Part shown: positions 1,263-15,366 of the stretch, one piece after another
Numbering within the stretch: the stretch's first letter is position 1
How the letters are laid out: each line of letters starts with the position of its first letter
From: a virus
Taxonomy: Duplodnaviria; Heunggongvirae; Uroviricota; Caudoviricetes
DNA length: 15,661 bases
Strand: one strand, 5' to 3'
Virus record (IMG/VR): IMGVR_UViG_2724679238_000003
Span: 1-15,661 of that record
Notes under the pieces: generated by a model
The model's input: only the letters and a program-made list of their open reading frames with translations
Told to the model about the DNA's origin: nothing
Database searches by the model: none
Position numbers and translations under genes: made by a program

Positions 1263-1700
1263 TTATTTCAGGCATTGCGTCCTGATGTATTCCTGCAGGT
1301 AGTTAACCTGCGCGGTTATCCTGTCGATTCCACTTCGGAGACGGTAATAATTGAGTTCAGCATCTGCTGTAAGTCTTGGGCTTTCTCCATCGCCCATGCT
1401 GCTGGCTTCGGTCGTTGACTTTGCACAGGTGGCGGCGACTTGCAGGCGCTTACGACCAGCAGAAACATCAGCACGGAGACTTTCGATAGTCGCGTTAGCA
1501 TCAGCAAGCTCCTTTGTGTATCTGGCGTCGAGTTCTGCTACATCACGTTGACGCCTCTGCATGTCAGCGATAATGGATGCGGCTTTATCGCGCTGCTCTT
1601 TGTAGGTCATGGCGTTATCACGGTAATGATTAACAGCCCATGACAGGCAGACGATGATGCAGATAACCAGAGCATAAATAATCGCGGCGACTCTGCTCAC
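1263..1700 (-). CDS. Rz: Rz i-spanin
   Basis: Translation from GTG 1700 ([29 protein letters not shown]...) closely matches lambda Rz as I recall it ([29 protein letters not shown]...); GTGA overlap with endolysin stop; GGGGGA RBS upstream. Track ORF begins at an upstream TTG (1715). Confidence 0.85.
1316..1501 (-). CDS. Rz1: Rz1 o-spanin lipoprotein, embedded in Rz in the +1 frame
   Basis: Embedded ORF with signal-peptide-like N-terminus, lipobox VSAC and proline-rich mature region ([16 protein letters not shown]), as in lambda Rz1; ATG at 1501. Confidence 0.75.
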
Positions 1701-2230
1701 TGATCTATCCCCCAACAGGCTAATGCGCTTTCCTGGTCACGACGAATAACCTGTCCATAGCAGTTATTTGAACGTATGCGGCAATCGCGCCCACCATCTT
1801 TTATCCACCAGCGAATCGCCTCGCATGCACCTTTACGATCACCGGCATTCAGCCGCTTATAAAACGTCGACGGGAAACACTTACCGGGGCCAATGTTATA
1901 GGGACAAAATGACGCTATACCCGCTTTCTGTGGTTCGGTCAGTGGCACTTTAATATTGCGCTCCACCCATGCCAGCGCCTTATCCCGTTCAATGGCGTTA
2001 ACCTGGTCGCATTTTTCCTTCGACAGTTTCATACCGGGAAAAACGGGTTTTCCATCCACCACCGTGGCACCCCGACAGATGGTCCAGATGCCGGAACCAT
2101 CGCGGTATGCCGTTGTGTGGTTACCTTCTTTTTCATCCAGAAACTGGTCGAGAATATCAGGCGCAGGCGCACCGACGGCAATCAGTGCCAGAACGGCAGC
2201 CGACAGGCCGTATCTGATTTTTGCGTTCAT
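1697..2230 (-). CDS. R: SAR endolysin, T4-lysozyme-like muramidase (phi21 R-type)
   Basis: 177 aa; N-terminal hydrophobic Gly/Ala-rich SAR segment ([17 protein letters not shown]) followed by a lysozyme-like E...D...T pattern ([24 protein letters not shown]); located between holin and Rz. Confidence 0.85.
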
Positions 2231-2335
2231 GGATATTTATCAGGATTTATCGGTTTCTGAACCCTGGATATGTTTATCTGTCCCGGCCTGTTGAATCAGG
2301 CAAGGAATAGTTAAATACAATAGAGAGGATTGTTT

Positions 2336-2608
2336 ATGGACAATAGCACCATTTCTCTACAGGAGTTGCTCGACTGCATTTCCAAGCTTCGGGATGATGT
2401 AAATGCCCTTACTGTCGCATTTTCATATCTGGCATTCTCAATTCCCAAGGAACAAATGCAACCAACACTGGCATCGCTCCAGCTTGAATCACTCAACCCC
2501 AAATGGTCCCAGCAACAACAAAATTCTTTCAAGTGGCTGGCGGTATTACTGGAAGAAAAATATGCTGGTGAAATTACCATTTCGGCGGAGTCTTCAGAGA
2601 ACCAGTAA
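2336..2608 (+). CDS. hypothetical protein (90 aa) encoded antisense to the lysis operon
   Basis: ATG 2336 with GAGAGGA RBS 6-7 nt upstream; helical-looking, protein-like composition; 3' end overlaps the convergent 114-aa ORF by 35 bp; not recognised. Confidence 0.45.
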   Translation: MDNSTISLQELLDCISKLRDDVNALTVAFSYLAFSIPKEQMQPTLASLQLESLNPKWSQQQQNSFKWLAVLLEEKYAGEITISAESSENQ

Positions 2609-2918
2609 TTCTTCCCGGTAGCTTTCCTTTGTAGGTTATCCACACATTCTGCGCCTCTAAAATTATGGGGCGCTTTTCCGGCGACAGCTCATCCCCTTCA
2701 CATAACCCGGCAGCAACATCCAGGAAGACCTGTCTGATGCTCCTTCTGGCTGCTGCCTCATAAAACTCCAGCGCGGCACCTTCAACACGGTCCAGCGAGA
2801 TGTCCAGGTCAAAAATTTCACCGTCAAAGCGTTTTTTGTCCCGTAACGCTAAAGTTACCGTAACTTTATTCTCAAAATTGCGGATCCCTTTCACAATCAG
2901 TTCATAGTTTTGAGTCAT
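2574..2918 (-). CDS. hypothetical protein (114 aa) inserted between holin and endolysin; possibly YdfR-like small prophage protein
   Basis: ATG 2918 with GGGGAGAG RBS; starts 5 nt after holin stop; resembles small proteins found in the holin-endolysin gap of E. coli cryptic prophages (weak recall). Confidence 0.55.
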   Translation of the reverse strand: MTQNYELIVKGIRNFENKVTVTLALRDKKRFDGEIFDLDISLDRVEGAALEFYEAAARRSIRQVFLDVAAGLCEGDELSPEKRPIILEAQNVWITYKGKLPGRITGSLKTPPKW

Positions 2919-2922
2919 TGAA

Positions 2923-3138
2923 TTACTCTCCCCGTGCAGCCTTACGCTTGTCTTCTTTAATCTTGAAATAAAGATTTGTCAGGTACGTCAGCAGGCCAAA
3001 AACCAAGCTCCCTAGCACACCTATCGCCACCCACTGGGATGGAGAGACTTTGTCCAGCAGCTGCAGTAACCAGTATCCCGTCCCCACCGCTGACGTGGTG
3101 TATGACACACCTGTTGTGATTTTTTCCATCTGGTACAT
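2923..3138 (-). CDS. S: pinholin (phi21 S-type class II holin) with dual-start motif
   Basis: 71 aa [71 protein letters not shown] closely matches phi21 S as recalled; two in-frame Met (3138 and 3129) typical of antiholin/holin; GGGAGA RBS. Track ORF extension to 3246 is judged spurious. Confidence 0.85.
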
Positions 3139-3170
3139 ACCCCGTCTCCCGTTATCCGGAAGCTGACAAC

Positions 3171-3203
3171 AATAAAAAAGCCACCAGTTAATTACTGATG
3201 GCT
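3171..3203 (-). terminator. terminator-like hairpin just upstream of the holin gene
   Basis: On minus strand: GCCATCAG-TAATTAA-CTGGTGGC stem (one G-U) followed by TTTTTTATTG. Confidence 0.4.
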
Positions 3204-3359
3204 CTGATGCATAAACGTCATAATACCTGACCATTATGATTGACAATAATTATAATGTTTATATAGAAATATCCCCGATATGTGTTACATATCATTTCTC
3301 CACGGGGTATATCCCTACGCCAGCGTAATCTTCTCTTCTACTACGCTGGCGTTTTTTTA

Positions 3360-5213
3360 TTATGATGCCGGTGCATTTATCTCCAGCATCAGACTTTCTA
3401 TCTCAACGCCATACGCTGCATTTTTTGTAACATCCGTCAGCGTCAGCGCATTCAGTCCCAGAGTCAGACTGTCTTTTATAACCTGGAATGCCGGGCCAGC
3501 CACTCCATTCAGTTTCGGAGTAACCGTGGCACTGCCGGCGGTGAACACCAGCTCCAGCGTCTGCCAGTCGTTACTGTAGCCCCCAAATTCCCCCAGCTTC
3601 GTGTTTCCTGCTTTCCTGTGATGCATCAGATTCAGTCTACCGTCAGTGGTCTGAGTGAAGTACGACATCAGGAACGGATTACCGGTACCCGTCATCGCCA
3701 CACCATCAGGAACGGGAGCGTCCGTATACAGATAAATCCCCAGCCCGAACTGATTATTAGTCAGAGCTCCAGACAGGCGGAACTTACAAGTCAGCCTGCC
3801 GCCCTGTGTCAGCAGGGTAATTGCGTCATCCACCGGATGCGCCAGGGACCAGGTTTTATTGCTCTGCTTGGTGATCTTAAATACACCATCTGCCAGCTGA
3901 ATTCCGCCATCTTTAATAGTCCAGCCCTGCGTAGCAGCCTCTCCGTCTGCCGGCAGCAGGGAGACTGTGCGGACGGATGTTTCGCTATCAGACGGCCCCG
4001 ATGGCGTATCGCCGCCGGGCGAGGGGTTGATTTCCGGTGCCTTACCACTGATGAAGGCTGAGGTGCGCCCGGCTGCGTTCAGAATAGCGGTTGCCAGGCG
4101 ATCCGAAATAATGCTCCTGCGCGCCCATGAACTAAAATGTGTCGGGCGGTTTGATGATACCCAGTTTCCATTCGTTCTCGATGCCGCACCGTAATATCCT
4201 GATGCCGGAATATCTGGATCTTCTGCCGGCGCATTAGTGGCGGTATTGACGCCGTTACCGTCTGTCATGAACGGCACAAAATAAACGCCCTCACTCTCCC
4301 TGTTTTTGTACGCCCCGTAAATGGTGTTGTACTGCGTGCCGTAGGTGTTTTTCCAGTAATACGTCGTGTCACCACAAATCCACGGCACATTTACAGCACT
4401 GCCACCATGACACTGCGCGTTAAACACAGTGAGGTCAGCACGAAACTGCTTCAGCATGGCTGTAAACAGAGCAGGTTGCTGTGCGTAGGTGGCGGCGCTC
4501 ATGTCAAACTCTCCCTGCATCCAGCACACCGCCAGCAACACATTTTTCTGGTTCTTCTGTAATGCAGCTTTGGTGCGCACAATCAGGTCCTGATATAACG
4601 GTTTACCCACACCCCAGCGCGCCGAATCCTGGCTGGCCCCCGTGTCCGCACTGAATGTCCCCTCCGCGCCCAGGGTAAATGCCGAACCACCACGACAGCA
4701 TGGTACCAGCAGGATCCCCGCATTATTCGGGATATACGGGAGCAGTTTTTTGGCAATATGAAGTCCCTGCCCCACACAGCCATACTGACCTTTGCTTAGG
4801 TCAGCCCTCGGATGATTCAGCGTACTCATATCCTGCACATCATGCAGACAGTGGTCAGCCGGGATGATGTCGTTATACGTACAACTCTCTCCACCCGGAG
4901 TTACCGTGCTGCGGCGCGCCAGCTGTTTAATGCGCGGATCCGGAGCATCGTAAGAATCCGGCAACGGAAGCCCTTCACCGTAGGCCATGCCGTTGGACTG
5001 TCCGGCAAGCACAACCACGTAGAACCAGTCCGGCTCAGATGAAGGGCCGACCTGTGGATCTCCTTCAATAGCCACCGCCTGCATCAGTGTGTACGGCGTA
5101 ATGGCAACCGGTCCGCCGTATGGCTGCCAGCCCTCTTTCAGCTTTTGTGTCAGTTTTTCCGCCAGATCTGACGGCGAGGAAGCCCTGACCAAATCATAAC
5201 GTTTAATCGACAT
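3360..5213 (-). CDS. nanS: NanS-p-like prophage sialate O-acetylesterase with N-terminal DUF1737-like region
   Basis: 617 aa from ATG 5213 (MSIKRYDLVRASSPSDLAEKLTQKLKEGWQPYGGP...); resembles the large esterase ORFs I recall downstream of stx in Stx prophages; sits between Q and the holin. Track ORF begins at upstream GTG 5231. Confidence 0.7.
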   Translation of the reverse strand: MSIKRYDLVRASSPSDLAEKLTQKLKEGWQPYGGPVAITPYTLMQAVAIEGDPQVGPSSEPDWFYVVVLAGQSNGMAYGEGLPLPDSYDAPDPRIKQLARRSTVTPGGESCTYNDIIPADHCLHDVQDMSTLNHPRADLSKGQYGCVGQGLHIAKKLLPYIPNNAGILLVPCCRGGSAFTLGAEGTFSADTGASQDSARWGVGKPLYQDLIVRTKAALQKNQKNVLLAVCWMQGEFDMSAATYAQQPALFTAMLKQFRADLTVFNAQCHGGSAVNVPWICGDTTYYWKNTYGTQYNTIYGAYKNRESEGVYFVPFMTDGNGVNTATNAPAEDPDIPASGYYGAASRTNGNWVSSNRPTHFSSWARRSIISDRLATAILNAAGRTSAFISGKAPEINPSPGGDTPSGPSDSETSVRTVSLLPADGEAATQGWTIKDGGIQLADGVFKITKQSNKTWSLAHPVDDAITLLTQGGRLTCKFRLSGALTNNQFGLGIYLYTDAPVPDGVAMTGTGNPFLMSYFTQTTDGRLNLMHHRKAGNTKLGEFGGYSNDWQTLELVFTAGSATVTPKLNGVAGPAFQVIKDSLTLGLNALTLTDVTKNAAYGVEIESLMLEINAPAS

Positions 5214-5547
5214 CAAATTTCTCTCATGCACAGGAATAAAGTAGGGAAAGGCCGGAGCAGGAACAGAAGAAAATCACAGGATGAACATCTGCCAATAGCA
5301 GGCCGTAAAAAAAGGCCGCGCCATGCGCAGCCAAAACTCACAAGGAAAATGATAACTGGAATAACAATTGTGATATACGCATGGTACCGGGAGCTTCCCG
5401 GTGAGTTCAGCCTGGTGCAACCGAACCCGCGTCAGCCGCCAATCGACAATTAATCGAAGTATTCGACATTCACCAGTCGCCCCCCCATACAGGGGAATTC
5501 ACCATGCAGAAATGTTTTTAATAAACAGCAAACAAAAAAATCAAGCA

Positions 5548-5791: not shown

Positions 5792-6550
5792 TTAAATTCT
5801 GGTCCTTACAATATCAACCTGAAGATTCTTATCTTGTGCTGATTGATAAATGACAAACCTTTTACTACCTGCATTGAAAGAAGTAGACAAAACCAGACAA
5901 TTATCATAACGAGCAAGAACATAATACCAACCATCATTATAATTAATCATTTCATATTCTTTCTTAAACTGTGGTTTGTAATATCCTGTCAGAAATGAAA
6001 AAAGCCAGAAATATGCCACAAAAGCAATCATCACAATCTCAAAAAAATGTTTTTTTATAAATGGCTTATCATAGAAGCATGATACCGATAAAAATCGCCC
6101 ATAAGATCTTATCGAAATTGTAACCGCCAGCGCAATCGCTGCTGACAGTAGCAAAAGAGGTACCTGAATCTTCTGTCTCAATATAGAAAACTCAATAATT
6201 GCCGGCACAAACAATAATTCCACAGCAAAATAAAGGCGAAATACATTTAGCTCTTGCATAGAATGTTTTCTTTTCACTGCGAAAAAGAATACAACACCAA
6301 TACCCCAACCGATAAGAAATATAGCAATGACGATAACTGCAAAAAATAAACTTCTGGCAACATCATCAACACCTGCACCTACAATCCACCATGGGAAGCC
6401 GTAGTAAAAAGAAGTACCCCATCCATAGAAATAAGCACTCCCCCATCCAAGGCATCCCATATAGGCAATAAAAAGTGAAGAACTCCTGAGCAGCGCACCA
6501 TCCTTCATAACCACCCCAATACAAGATGATAACATTGGCTTACAACTCAT
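5792..6550 (-). CDS. hypothetical integral membrane protein (about 5 TM helices plus ~60-aa C-terminal soluble domain); cargo gene
   Basis: 252-aa ORF in a visibly AT-rich segment directly downstream of pR'/Q; several long hydrophobic stretches; start ambiguous (ATG 6550 has no RBS, internal Met15 has GGGGTGG upstream); no family recognised. Confidence 0.6.
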   Translation of the reverse strand: MSCKPMLSSCIGVVMKDGALLRSSSLFIAYMGCLGWGSAYFYGWGTSFYYGFPWWIVGAGVDDVARSLFFAVIVIAIFLIGWGIGVVFFFAVKRKHSMQELNVFRLYFAVELLFVPAIIEFSILRQKIQVPLLLLSAAIALAVTISIRSYGRFLSVSCFYDKPFIKKHFFEIVMIAFVAYFWLFSFLTGYYKPQFKKEYEMINYNDGWYYVLARYDNCLVLSTSFNAGSKRFVIYQSAQDKNLQVDIVRTRI

Positions 6551-6787: not shown

Positions 6788-7411
6788 CTAACGTGTGACC
6801 GTATTCAAAATGTTGTCTGCAATTGACTCTTCCTTGTGGCATTGCACCACCAGAGCGTCATACAGCGGCTTAACAGTGCGTGACCAGGTGGGTTGGGTAA
6901 GGTTTGGGATTAGCATCGTCACAGCGCGATATGCGGCGCTTGCTGGCATCCTTGAATAGCCGATGCCTTTGCATCTTCCGCACTCTTTCTCGACAACTCT
7001 CCCCCACTGCTCTGTTTTGGCTATATCAACCGCACGGCCTGTACCGTGGCAATCTCTGCATCTTGCGCCCGGCGTCGCGGCACTACGGCAATAATCCGCA
7101 TAAGCGAATGTTGCGAGCACTTGCAGCACCTTTGCCTTAGTATTTCCTTCAAGCTTTGCCACACCACGGTATTTCCCCGATACCTTGTGTGCAAATTGCA
7201 TCAGATAGTTGATGGCCTTTTGTTTGTCTTTCTGGCTGAGTTCGTGCTTACCGCAGAATGCAGCCATTCCGAATCCGGCTTGTGATTGCGCCATCCCCAT
7301 AGCAGCCATCACATCAGTACCGGAAAGAGAGTCAGAAGCCGTAGCCCGTGGTGAGTCGCTCATCATCGGGCTTTTTGGCGAATGAAATTTAGCTACGCTT
7401 TCGAGTCTCAT
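6788..7411 (-). CDS. Q: late gene antiterminator Q (lambda type)
   Basis: 207 aa, same length as lambda Q and recognisably the same protein; ATG 7411 with GGGAGAAGG RBS; ATGA overlap with ninI stop. Confidence 0.93.
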
Positions 7412-12807: not shown

Positions 12808-13458
12808 ATGAATACACAACTGATGGGTGAGCGTATTCGCGCTCGCAGAAAAGAACTCAAGATTAGGCAGGCTGCCCTTGGCAAGATGGTTGGCGTGTCT
12901 AATGTTGCTATTTCCCAATGGGAGCGTTCTGAAACTGAGCCCAATGGCGAAAACCTATTGGCCTTAGCCAAGGCTTTGCAGTGTTCCCCTGATTACTTGT
13001 TGAAAGGAGAAGATAGTCTTTCAAACATTGCCTATCACAGCAGGCATGATCCAAGAGGTTCGTATCCTCTAATTAGTTGGGTAAGCGCAGGATGTTGGAT
13101 GGAAGCTGTAGAGCCATATCATAAGCGTGCAATAGATAACTGGTACGATACAACCGTAGATTGTTCAGAAGATTCGTTTTGGCTGGACGTAAAAGGTGAT
13201 TCGATGACGGCTCCAGCCGGTCTTAGCATCCCTGAAGGGATGATAATACTCGTCGATCCTGAAGTAGAACCTCGTAATGGGAAGCTGGTAGTGGCAAAGC
13301 TCGAAGGAGAAAACGAGGCAACTTTCAAGAAGTTAGTTATTGATGCTGGCAGGAGGTTTCTAAAACCACTTAACCCACAATATCCGATGATTGAGATCAA
13401 CGGGAACTGCAAAATCATCGGTGTAGTTGTCGATGCAAAAATAGCAAACCTTCCATAA
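12808..13458 (+). CDS. cI: prophage repressor, P22 C2 type (HTH plus LexA-like S24 autopeptidase domain)
   Basis: 216 aa, recognisably P22 C2 (MNTQLMGERIRARRKELKIRQAALGKMVGVSNVAISQWERSETEPNGENLLALAKALQCSPDYLL...); Ser in GDSM and Lys in VVAKLEG consistent with the S24 catalytic dyad. Confidence 0.93.
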   Translation: MNTQLMGERIRARRKELKIRQAALGKMVGVSNVAISQWERSETEPNGENLLALAKALQCSPDYLLKGEDSLSNIAYHSRHDPRGSYPLISWVSAGCWMEAVEPYHKRAIDNWYDTTVDCSEDSFWLDVKGDSMTAPAGLSIPEGMIILVDPEVEPRNGKLVVAKLEGENEATFKKLVIDAGRRFLKPLNPQYPMIEINGNCKIIGVVVDAKIANLP

Positions 13459-15177: not shown

Positions 15178-15201
15178 TTATGTATAAATAAGGAGCACAC
15201 C

Positions 15202-15366
15202 ATGCAATATGCCATTGCAGGGTGGCCTGTTGCTGGCTGCCCTTCCGAATCTTTACTTGAACGAATCACCCGTAAATTACGTGACGGATGGAAACGCCTT
15301 ATCGACATACTTAATCAGCCAGGAGTCCCAAAAAATGGATCAAACACTTATGGCTATCCAGACTAA
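15202..15366 (+). CDS. cIII: CIII (FtsH/HflB protease inhibitor)
   Basis: 54 aa [54 protein letters not shown], matching lambda CIII; AGGAG RBS 6 nt upstream; below the ORF-track size cutoff. Confidence 0.9.
   Translation: MQYAIAGWPVAGCPSESLLERITRKLRDGWKRLIDILNQPGVPKNGSNTYGYPD

Follow-up and report, generated by a model that had tools for sequence, protein, structure and literature searches.

The interval between the holin gene (S) and the lysozyme gene (R) of the prophage considered here holds two genes of different standing. One, ydfR, is an ordinary resident late gene of this type of lysis cassette. The other is a gene of 90 codons, antisense to the late operon, to which I will refer as ORF90. 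It is probably a separate and optional piece of moron-like cargo, lodged in a hypervariable slot between ydfR and R, and its overlap with ydfR is probably incidental. The arrangement is real but common, and it was already annotated: roughly one complete E. coli genome in five has ORF90, and RefSeq genomes carry both genes, annotated side by side by PGAP. A role as moron-like cargo is the best supported reading of ORF90. A gene pair that is common in E. coli prophages but unstudied can now be parsed into a resident late gene and an optional antisense cargo gene.

The window (the whole stretch of 15,661 nt analysed here) is part of a lambdoid E. coli prophage whose late genes lie on the minus strand. 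A CI-type repressor gene is found on the plus strand at 12808-13458, followed in the wider layout by O, P, NinB, Dam, NinG and a phosphatase. The minus strand carries the genes for the Q antiterminator (6788-7411) and for a SASA/NanS-like esterase (3360-5231), and then the lysis cassette. The first gene of the cassette (2923-3138, minus strand) encodes a pinholin of 71 aa, a class II holin of the S21 type with a MYQM dual-start motif (PF04971 Phage_holin_2_1, E = 1.1e-32; essD / class II holin in PGAP). Four nt beyond its stop at 2923 begins ydfR (2574-2918, minus strand), which has an ATG start, 114 codons and a strong Shine-Dalgarno sequence, GGGGAGAG. ORF90 lies on the plus strand at 2336-2608, counted from an ATG that gives 90 aa (an alternative start, TTG at 2330, would give 92 aa), and is preceded by its own Shine-Dalgarno sequence, AGAGAGGA, at 2322-2329. 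The 3' ends of the two genes share 35 bp (2574-2608). From the stop of ydfR it is 344 nt to R (1697-2230, minus strand), which encodes a SAR-type phage lysozyme of 177 aa with a hydrophobic, SAR-like segment at its N-terminus (PF00959, E = 1.4e-24; annotated rrrQ/lysozyme); no recognisable Shine-Dalgarno sequence precedes the start codon of R in its leader (2231-2286). Rz lies at 1263-1715 on the minus strand (PF03245). The initial annotation, which had described a 114-aa minus-strand and a 90-aa plus-strand ORF between a pinholin and a SAR lysozyme, each with a ribosome binding site and overlapping by 35 bp, was therefore accurate as to coordinates and as to the identity of both flanking genes.

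The same annotation held that neither protein of the interval could be confidently recognised. For the 114-aa protein this was wrong. It scores 142.8 bits against the DUF1327 profile (PF07041, E = 4.1e-42; the cut-off is 25), with residues 1-112 aligned to positions 1-92 of the 93 in the profile. It also belongs to PHROG 406, and its RefSeq annotation is "YdfR family protein". By sequence it is unambiguously a member of the YdfR/DUF1327 family. Genes of this family are found, in the orientation of their neighbors, between an S21-type holin gene and a lysozyme gene in the window, in the Qin prophage of E. coli K-12, in strain EC958, in phage records and in the IMG/VR loci considered below. In such a position ydfR would share the Q-dependent late promoter with S, R and Rz.

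The sole functional work found in the literature on either protein concerns YdfR of K-12; for DUF1327 itself a passing mention was found and nothing more. The available text of that work describes K-12 YdfR as found in a two-hybrid screen, with residues 1-72 binding the N-terminal catalytic half of RNase E, and as co-purifying with an N-terminal fragment of RNase E and with DNase-resistant nucleic acid, i.e., RNA (PMC13232886). According to the same text, few transcripts were altered when K-12 YdfR was overproduced, and growth arrest is reported there for YegJ only (PMC13232886). The residues that interact with RNase E, 1-72, are the conserved part of the YdfR family. By analogy with the K-12 protein, YdfR of the window probably acts on host RNA metabolism. 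Binding to RNase E is the only functional lead for YdfR, which had no match in PADLOC, and it suggests that lysis cassettes carry a factor of RNA metabolism.

The standing of the two genes becomes apparent when related cassettes are aligned. The region from S to R was compared by BLAST with 80 IMG/VR loci that encode a nearly identical YdfR. In 23 of them, positions 2579-3129 and 1697-2286 of the window find matches and nothing lies between, about 19 bp taking the place of 2287-2578. Three more carry different inserts at the same site. I will refer to the stretch missing from these otherwise collinear lysis cassettes (2287-2578, about 292 bp) as the ORF90 cassette. Its G+C content is 42.5%, as compared to 47.5% for ydfR, 49.5% for S and 52.2% for R, and no convincing direct repeats were found at its boundaries. 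Since the absences from IMG/VR loci are clean and ydfR of the K-12 Qin prophage has no antisense gene, ydfR is to be taken as the resident gene and ORF90 as the sole variable insert. The initial annotation had seen the two genes as one convergent insertion that splits holin from endolysin. That view cannot be kept, given that ydfR stands without an antisense partner in K-12 Qin and in the 990 genomes with an empty slot described next.

The survey that the initial annotation had proposed, of how often the pair occurs between S and R, was made over 5426 complete E. coli genomes, with ORF90 counted as present at a coverage of at least 80%. The ORF90 cassette was found in 1155 of the 5426, and the empty-slot junction in 990. 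A third allele, in 294 genomes, consists of a YdfR with a C-terminal extension of 70 aa (183 aa in all) and a convergent ORF of 86-88 aa, which I will call ORF88 (PHROG 2572), and a fourth, in 90 genomes including an O104:H4 strain, of a YdfR of 268 aa and a convergent ORF of 104 aa (ORF104; PHROG 1853). All three cargo genes are antisense to the late operon. They show no detectable homology to one another: the notion that ORF88 and ORF104 are distant homologues of ORF90 was rejected, hhalign assigning a probability of 0.3% to both. The alleles all break just past the YdfR sequence ...GSLKTPP and rejoin in the conserved leader of R, about 55 nt (2231-2286) that alignments and junctions indicate to be common to all of them and that forms the far-upstream region of ORF90 as well. 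Carriers of the ORF90 allele include the ST131 strain EC958, an APEC O78 strain and E. coli C, and the cassette is also present in isolated or induced phages (Chlobot, vB_EcoS-783R2 and phiSTEC1575-Stx2k). The slot between ydfR and R, its alleles numbering at least four and their frequencies comparable, amounts to a natural experiment on the cargo that phages retain beside lysis genes.

The boundaries of the cassette bear on the overlap of the two genes. YdfR of the window ends ...GSLKTPPKW, the last 35 nt of its gene lying within ORF90, and the last 30 nt or so of ORF90 are DNA of the ydfR backbone, still present where the cassette is not. In the overlap, omega for ORF90 is about 1, and its last ten or so codons are poorly conserved. 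Because the tail of ORF90 is derived from the backbone, is predicted to be disordered (see below) and has an omega near 1, the 35-bp overlap is best read as a by-product.

ORF90 itself is annotated by PGAP as WP_000370550.1, a "hypothetical protein", and a strain 99.9% identical has a PGAP CDS of 273 nt at the position of ORF90. Residues 1-90 align with positions 1-90 of the 90 in PHROG 2411 (E = 2.2e-59). A gene so short, without a Pfam family, named only as hypothetical and sometimes frameshifted might be suspected of being a spurious ORF or an artefact of annotation. To the contrary, when the six reading frames are followed through six diverged copies (57-100% amino acid identity) taken from phage, island, plasmid and Citrobacter, that of ORF90 alone stays open in every copy. 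Over the part outside the ydfR overlap its pN/pS is 0.32 and the median pairwise omega is 0.23, and the variable sites are skewed towards the third codon position (25/18/49). Four of the other five frames give pN/pS values of 1.1-1.5. The remaining antisense frame, which shares the wobble position, gives 0.27 but has stop codons in 4 of 6 copies. Remote homologues were found in several genera by profile search, and the protein has a confident AF2 model. A spurious ORF is very improbable in light of these results, and it is the frame and pN/pS test together with the profile-search homologues that effectively refute it. By its pattern of substitutions, ORF90 is a real protein gene under purifying selection. 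It is intact in 57 of 59 related loci, with a premature stop in the other two. Selection is not absolute, since some genomes carry copies that are truncated or frameshifted (94 aa). The initial annotation had taken it as a point against its own reading if related prophages kept the minus-strand ORF and not the plus-strand one. Many related prophages do have ydfR and lack ORF90, but its coding is conserved wherever it occurs.

A profile search of 1.8 billion representatives and a second homology search brought to light relatives of ORF90, 81-106 aa long, in Citrobacter, Serratia, Chania, Sodalis, Gibbsiella, Acerihabitans and Chimaeribacter. They have in common a motif around AFSYLAF...ES.N. 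The settings in which they are found are diverse. An island relic (L006) has an intact 90-aa homologue beside iha, with 60% amino acid identity to the phage copies, dS of about 1.1 and omega of about 0.2. The island has plentiful IS remnants and no ydfR, and a decayed trace of the first 20 nt or so of R lies upstream of the ORF90 copy. This copy was found in 60 genomes, all at least 99% identical, and being clonal it counts as a single independent event of retention. Another copy, on a plasmid, has an AIDA autotransporter nearby. The homologue (X) of Serratia marcescens and Chania is chromosomal, within the conserved order rne-pyrC-dinI-X-bssS-solA, and that of Sodalis likewise has a chromosomal setting away from phage genes. 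Locus L005, the island relic, Serratia, Chania and Sodalis all have the homologue without ydfR. Two homologues lie in phage surroundings of other kinds. In a Citrobacter prophage (L092) the homologue (PHROG 2411, E = 1.9e-33) is upstream of the holin gene, antisense, and convergent with an ORF of 63 aa that ends ...ITGSLRAP, like the tail of YdfR; in another phage contig it is antisense and adjoins the genes that precede terminase. I propose that ORF90 represents an uncharacterised family of the Enterobacterales that has been captured repeatedly by lambdoid prophages near their lysis genes.

What the protein might do can be approached only from its form. The AF2 model, built on the alignment of homologues, predicts three helices (residues 8-33, 38-52 and 59-77; pLDDT 80.7) and a tail disordered from residue 80 (pLDDT 43 for residues 80-90). 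The protein is acidic (pI 4.3). Inspection of the sequence by eye reveals no hydrophobic leader and no membrane-spanning stretch, and the N-terminus, MDNSTISLQELLD, has neither a hydrophobic leader nor a lipobox cysteine. No match was found in Pfam, NCBIfam or PADLOC, a sequence-profile search of the PDB gave only hits with E > 0.1, and fold searches gave generic helical matches and no specific relative. Literature searches by RefSeq accession, phrog_2411 and ybl58 found nothing on ORF90, and searches combining holin or endolysin with moron or antisense found nothing relevant. The model and the composition suggest a protein, probably cytoplasmic, that most likely acts by attaching to some other protein; an enzyme, a membrane protein or a functional RNA is less likely. 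Size, charge and fold class are the grounds for this guess at its mode of action, no specific fold relative having been found to guide it.

The initial annotation had looked to promoter prediction for a plus-strand transcript starting near 2290-2330. This turned out poorly, as a consensus scan found no sigma-70 promoter upstream of ORF90. There is a candidate, TTGAAT (2291-2296) and TACAAT (2316-2321) on the plus strand, but the assignment is weak: the spacer is 19 nt and the leader would be very short. Diverged copies preserve the -10-like hexamer (TACAAT, GACAAT, TATAAT), and a similar string, ACAAT..AGAGGATT..ATG, is found ahead of the unrelated ORF104 cassette. No LexA box was seen by eye upstream of ORF90 or of its Serratia homologue; dinI alone has one. 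At the other end, RNA folding indicates a candidate terminator at 2651-2679 (plus strand), a hairpin with a stem of 7 bp and a loop of 9 nt followed by UUUUCC, 43 nt past the stop of ORF90 and antisense within codons 81-90 or so of ydfR. The hairpin is not reported by a consensus terminator scan limited to loops of 3-8 nt and at least 5 T, its loop being 9 nt and its U's four. Conservation of the hairpin within E. coli phages is confounded by its location inside conserved ydfR coding DNA. Homologous hairpins with U-tracts also follow the ORF90 homologues of the island relic and of the Citrobacter prophage, making three contexts with the window.

Taken as moron-like cargo, ORF90 would have its own promoter and be expressed in the lysogen, an expectation drawn from orientation and architecture. 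Most likely it would be transcribed on its own, against a late operon that is silent at that time, and its transcript would probably end at the hairpin inside ydfR. The suggestion of a moron-like gene was made in the initial annotation, and a good deal of it stands: presence and absence with clean boundaries, low G+C content, a Shine-Dalgarno sequence of its own, purifying selection, retention and chromosomal homologues all accord with it. What does not stand is the pairing with ydfR as one insert.

The alternatives differ in what they make of the opposed orientation and of the neighboring gene. The initial annotation offered as another possibility that the transcript acts as an antisense regulator of the timing of lysis. 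Spelled out, the transcript would act in cis on the expression of R (and ydfR), whether through convergent transcription or through a duplex with the late mRNA in the spacer between ydfR and R, the ORF being secondary. Such a transcript would pair without a mismatch over about 340 nt of the late mRNA immediately ahead of R, and over the 3' end of ydfR as well. R lacks a Shine-Dalgarno sequence and lies 344 nt past the ydfR stop, so that its expression could be sensitive to events in the spacer RNA, and in each of the three cargo alleles the small gene opposes the late operon. The substitution patterns, however, are those of selection on an amino acid sequence. ORF90 persists intact where S, ydfR and R are gone and has chromosomal homologues in other genera, while nearly identical cassettes lack it: 990 genomes have the empty slot and ydfR abuts R in K-12 Qin. 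The RNA itself is undistinguished, with no Rfam match at E < 0.77 in 2100-3300 and none at all inside 2231-2922, and with fold z-scores of -0.4 to -2.1. I therefore regard antisense control as decidedly improbable. It is unlikely, if not to that degree, that ORF90 is instead a gene of the phage cycle, serving anti-defence, superinfection exclusion or host takeover and expressed early or after induction. Many phage inhibitors of host proteins are small, acidic and helical, ORF90 is carried by isolated or induced phages, and the consensus scan gave no promoter that would fix the timing of expression. Against this, ORF90 runs counter to lambdoid transcription, early rightward and late alike, and shares its orientation with cI (12808-13458). 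Its expression in the phage cycle would need a local promoter and would be opposed by late transcription. It is moreover retained in an island relic that is not a phage, and has homologues among the core chromosomal genes of Serratia and Chania.

A further alternative makes partners of the two genes, on the model of toxin-antitoxin or colicin-immunity systems: a small protein made in the lysogen would neutralise a late DUF1327 effector, ORF90 being such a partner or an orphaned one. It has in its favor that in other alleles a YdfR extended at its C-terminus is accompanied by a convergent ORF of its own (183 aa with ORF88, 268 aa with ORF104). The unit of C-terminal module and ORF88 is found on two N-domains only 49% identical, with different junctions, and so it moves as a unit. 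The Citrobacter homologue of ORF90, convergent with its 63-aa ORF, fits as well, and in pore-forming colicins, too, the genes for colicin and immunity protein converge. YdfR of the window, however, has no C-terminal module, ending two residues past the junction, and the two genes are widespread independently of each other, ydfR without ORF90 (K-12 and the 990 genomes) and ORF90 without ydfR. Neither protein matches PADLOC, the effects of overproducing K-12 YdfR were slight in the published text cited above (PMC13232886), and physical linkage by itself would lead module and antisense ORF to co-occur. For the C-terminal module, dN/dS rests on 15 substitutions, too few to decide. A pair of this sort seems to me unlikely. 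The same alleles admit a broader conjecture: the ydfR-R junction may be a polymorphic effector slot, in which DUF1327 proteins, expressed late, engage RNase E or RNA by their N-domain and carry swappable C-terminal modules, each with a private convergent protein, made in the lysogen, that neutralises or modulates it. ORF90 would be a partner that lost or never needed its module and is able to act alone, in the way of the chromosomal copies of the Serratia type. This conjecture stays alive, at low probability, because YdfR extensions are found again and again with convergent ORFs of their own. If true, it would mean a previously undescribed layer, colicin-like or toxin-antitoxin-like, in lambdoid lysis cassettes.

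Whichever of these holds, and a moron-like cargo gene remains the reading I prefer, the family has a reach that its annotation does not suggest. It is without a Pfam entry, yet it is present in about one in five complete E. coli genomes and in an Stx2k phage. In Serratia and Chania it is also part of the core chromosome, next to dinI and bssS, and what is learned of its function in one setting would carry over to the other. Neither PHROG 2411 nor WP_000370550.1 gives a function, the chromosomal relatives in Serratia and Chania or the polymorphism of the slot.

The closest known counterpart to the cassette is essQ-ydfR-rrrQ-rzpQ of the K-12 Qin prophage, which has the same families in the same order and orientation (S21-type holin, DUF1327, lysozyme, Rz). 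The two YdfR proteins are 67% identical over the aligned part and differ in the C-terminal third. The K-12 gene encodes 103 aa, has a 4-bp overlap with the start codon of rrrQ and is followed by no antisense gene, whereas the window has the ending ...GSLKTPPKW and then the 292-bp ORF90 cassette. For YdfR alone there is a functional analogue in Dip (gp37) of phage phiKZ, another phage protein that binds RNase E.

The operons of pore-forming colicins offer a likeness of arrangement, an inducible gene ahead of lysis functions faced by a small convergent gene, and ORF90 may be constitutive in the same way. The variable C-terminal modules on the upstream protein, found in other alleles of the slot, are a second colicin-like trait. 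YdfR of the window differs from colicins in that it shows no sign of toxicity and has no receptor or translocation domains and no C-terminal module; the two genes also occur independently.

The concept of the moron comes from Hendrix and colleagues, and ORF90 may be set beside the bor gene of phage lambda. That gene is a small extra one beside the lysis genes, oriented against the late operon, with lower G+C content and absent from close relatives; it lies after Rz, and Bor is an outer-membrane lipoprotein. ORF90 is no member of the Bor family, having no Pfam match of any kind and no lipoprotein signal by eye. Unlike Bor, it is acidic and helical, without a hydrophobic leader as judged by eye, its gene lies between ydfR and R rather than after Rz, and its promoter is only a candidate. 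It resembles bor in its position by the lysis genes, its orientation, its presence in some genomes and absence from others and its low G+C content. Given a gene as small as bor, so oriented, absent from relatives and low in G+C, expression from the prophage rather than with the late genes would be expected.

In other alleles of the slot between ydfR and R, the gene for the SAR lysozyme, YdfR is longer by 70 or 156 residues beyond ...GSLKTPP, and each of these alleles carries its own convergent small ORF, from PHROG 2572 or PHROG 1853. The extended ydfR and its ORF lie at 2998-3549 (+) and 3497-3763 (-) in locus L053, at 2998-3804 (+) and 3814-4128 (-) in L051 and L072, and at 2320-2829 (-) and 2112-2372 (+) in L004. 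Since the 70-residue module and its ORF are found together on two N-domains with a mutual identity of only 49%, joined at different points, the module and the convergent ORF are mobile as one unit.

ORF90, the plus-strand gene (PHROG 2411) that fills the slot in the window, has homologues in several settings. The homologue in a Citrobacter freundii prophage (L092, 5001-5252, +) lies upstream of the holin and converges with a 63-aa ORF (5239-5430, -), which differs from YdfR in lacking the DUF1327 N-domain but resembles the YdfR tail at its C-terminus (...EKITGSLRAPIKL). Just as a terminator would, a hairpin with a short T-tract (CGCCAGTGGTAGGACACTGGCG, then TTTC) stands 5' of this homologue, and a homologous hairpin is found in L051 5' of ORF104, the antisense ORF of that allele. 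A relic of a lysis cassette lies beside iha in a pathogenicity island of E. coli E41 (L006, 2886-3360). S (the pinholin gene), ydfR and R are gone there; what remains is an ORF90 homologue that is still intact, the hairpin downstream of it and a decayed trace of the 5' end of R. This relic occurs in 60 complete genomes, with identity of at least 99% throughout. Serratia marcescens and Chania have chromosomal homologues of 92-93 aa (L091, 5001-5282; L096, 3001-3279), set in the conserved order rne-pyrC-dinI-X-bssS-solA, where X is the homologue. It follows the dinI terminator and has its own Shine-Dalgarno sequence; a LexA box is present at dinI only, not at the adjoining homologue.

In some genomes ORF90 loses its frame at about residues 47-65, in most cases close to the CAGCAACAACAAAA run, and is read to its end in the +1 frame (…NNKILSSGWR…SR), four copies (P0046, P0049, P0051 and P0058) reaching 94 aa. 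The corresponding frame in the window spans 2403-2621. Such alleles may be pseudogenes, or the shift may be a sequencing error in a homopolymer.

Elsewhere in the window, which contains no stx or tRNA genes, a 623-aa DUF1737/SASA/DUF6645 esterase (3360-5231, -) lies directly upstream of S; it is NanS-p-like, of the kind that Stx phages carry downstream of stx. Between it and a 252-aa ORF that matches no Pfam family (5792-6550, -), itself between the esterase and Q, is an STnc100 sRNA match (5303-5536, -; Rfam, 95.8 bits, gathering score 47). A lambda cIII thermoregulator element is matched at 15189-15247 (+; Rfam, 88.5 bits).

On the late strand, a strong terminator-like hairpin of 12 pairs with a T-run after it (3177-3205, -) precedes the start codon of S by about 40 nt, and late transcription must read through it. 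A leader of about 55 nt before R is conserved across every slot allele. No recognisable Shine-Dalgarno sequence precedes the R start at 2230 (…GATAAATCCTGATAAATATCC-ATG; 2231-2260, minus strand), which lies 344 nt past the ydfR stop. The arrangement differs in K-12 Qin, where an ATGA overlap couples translation of R to that of ydfR.
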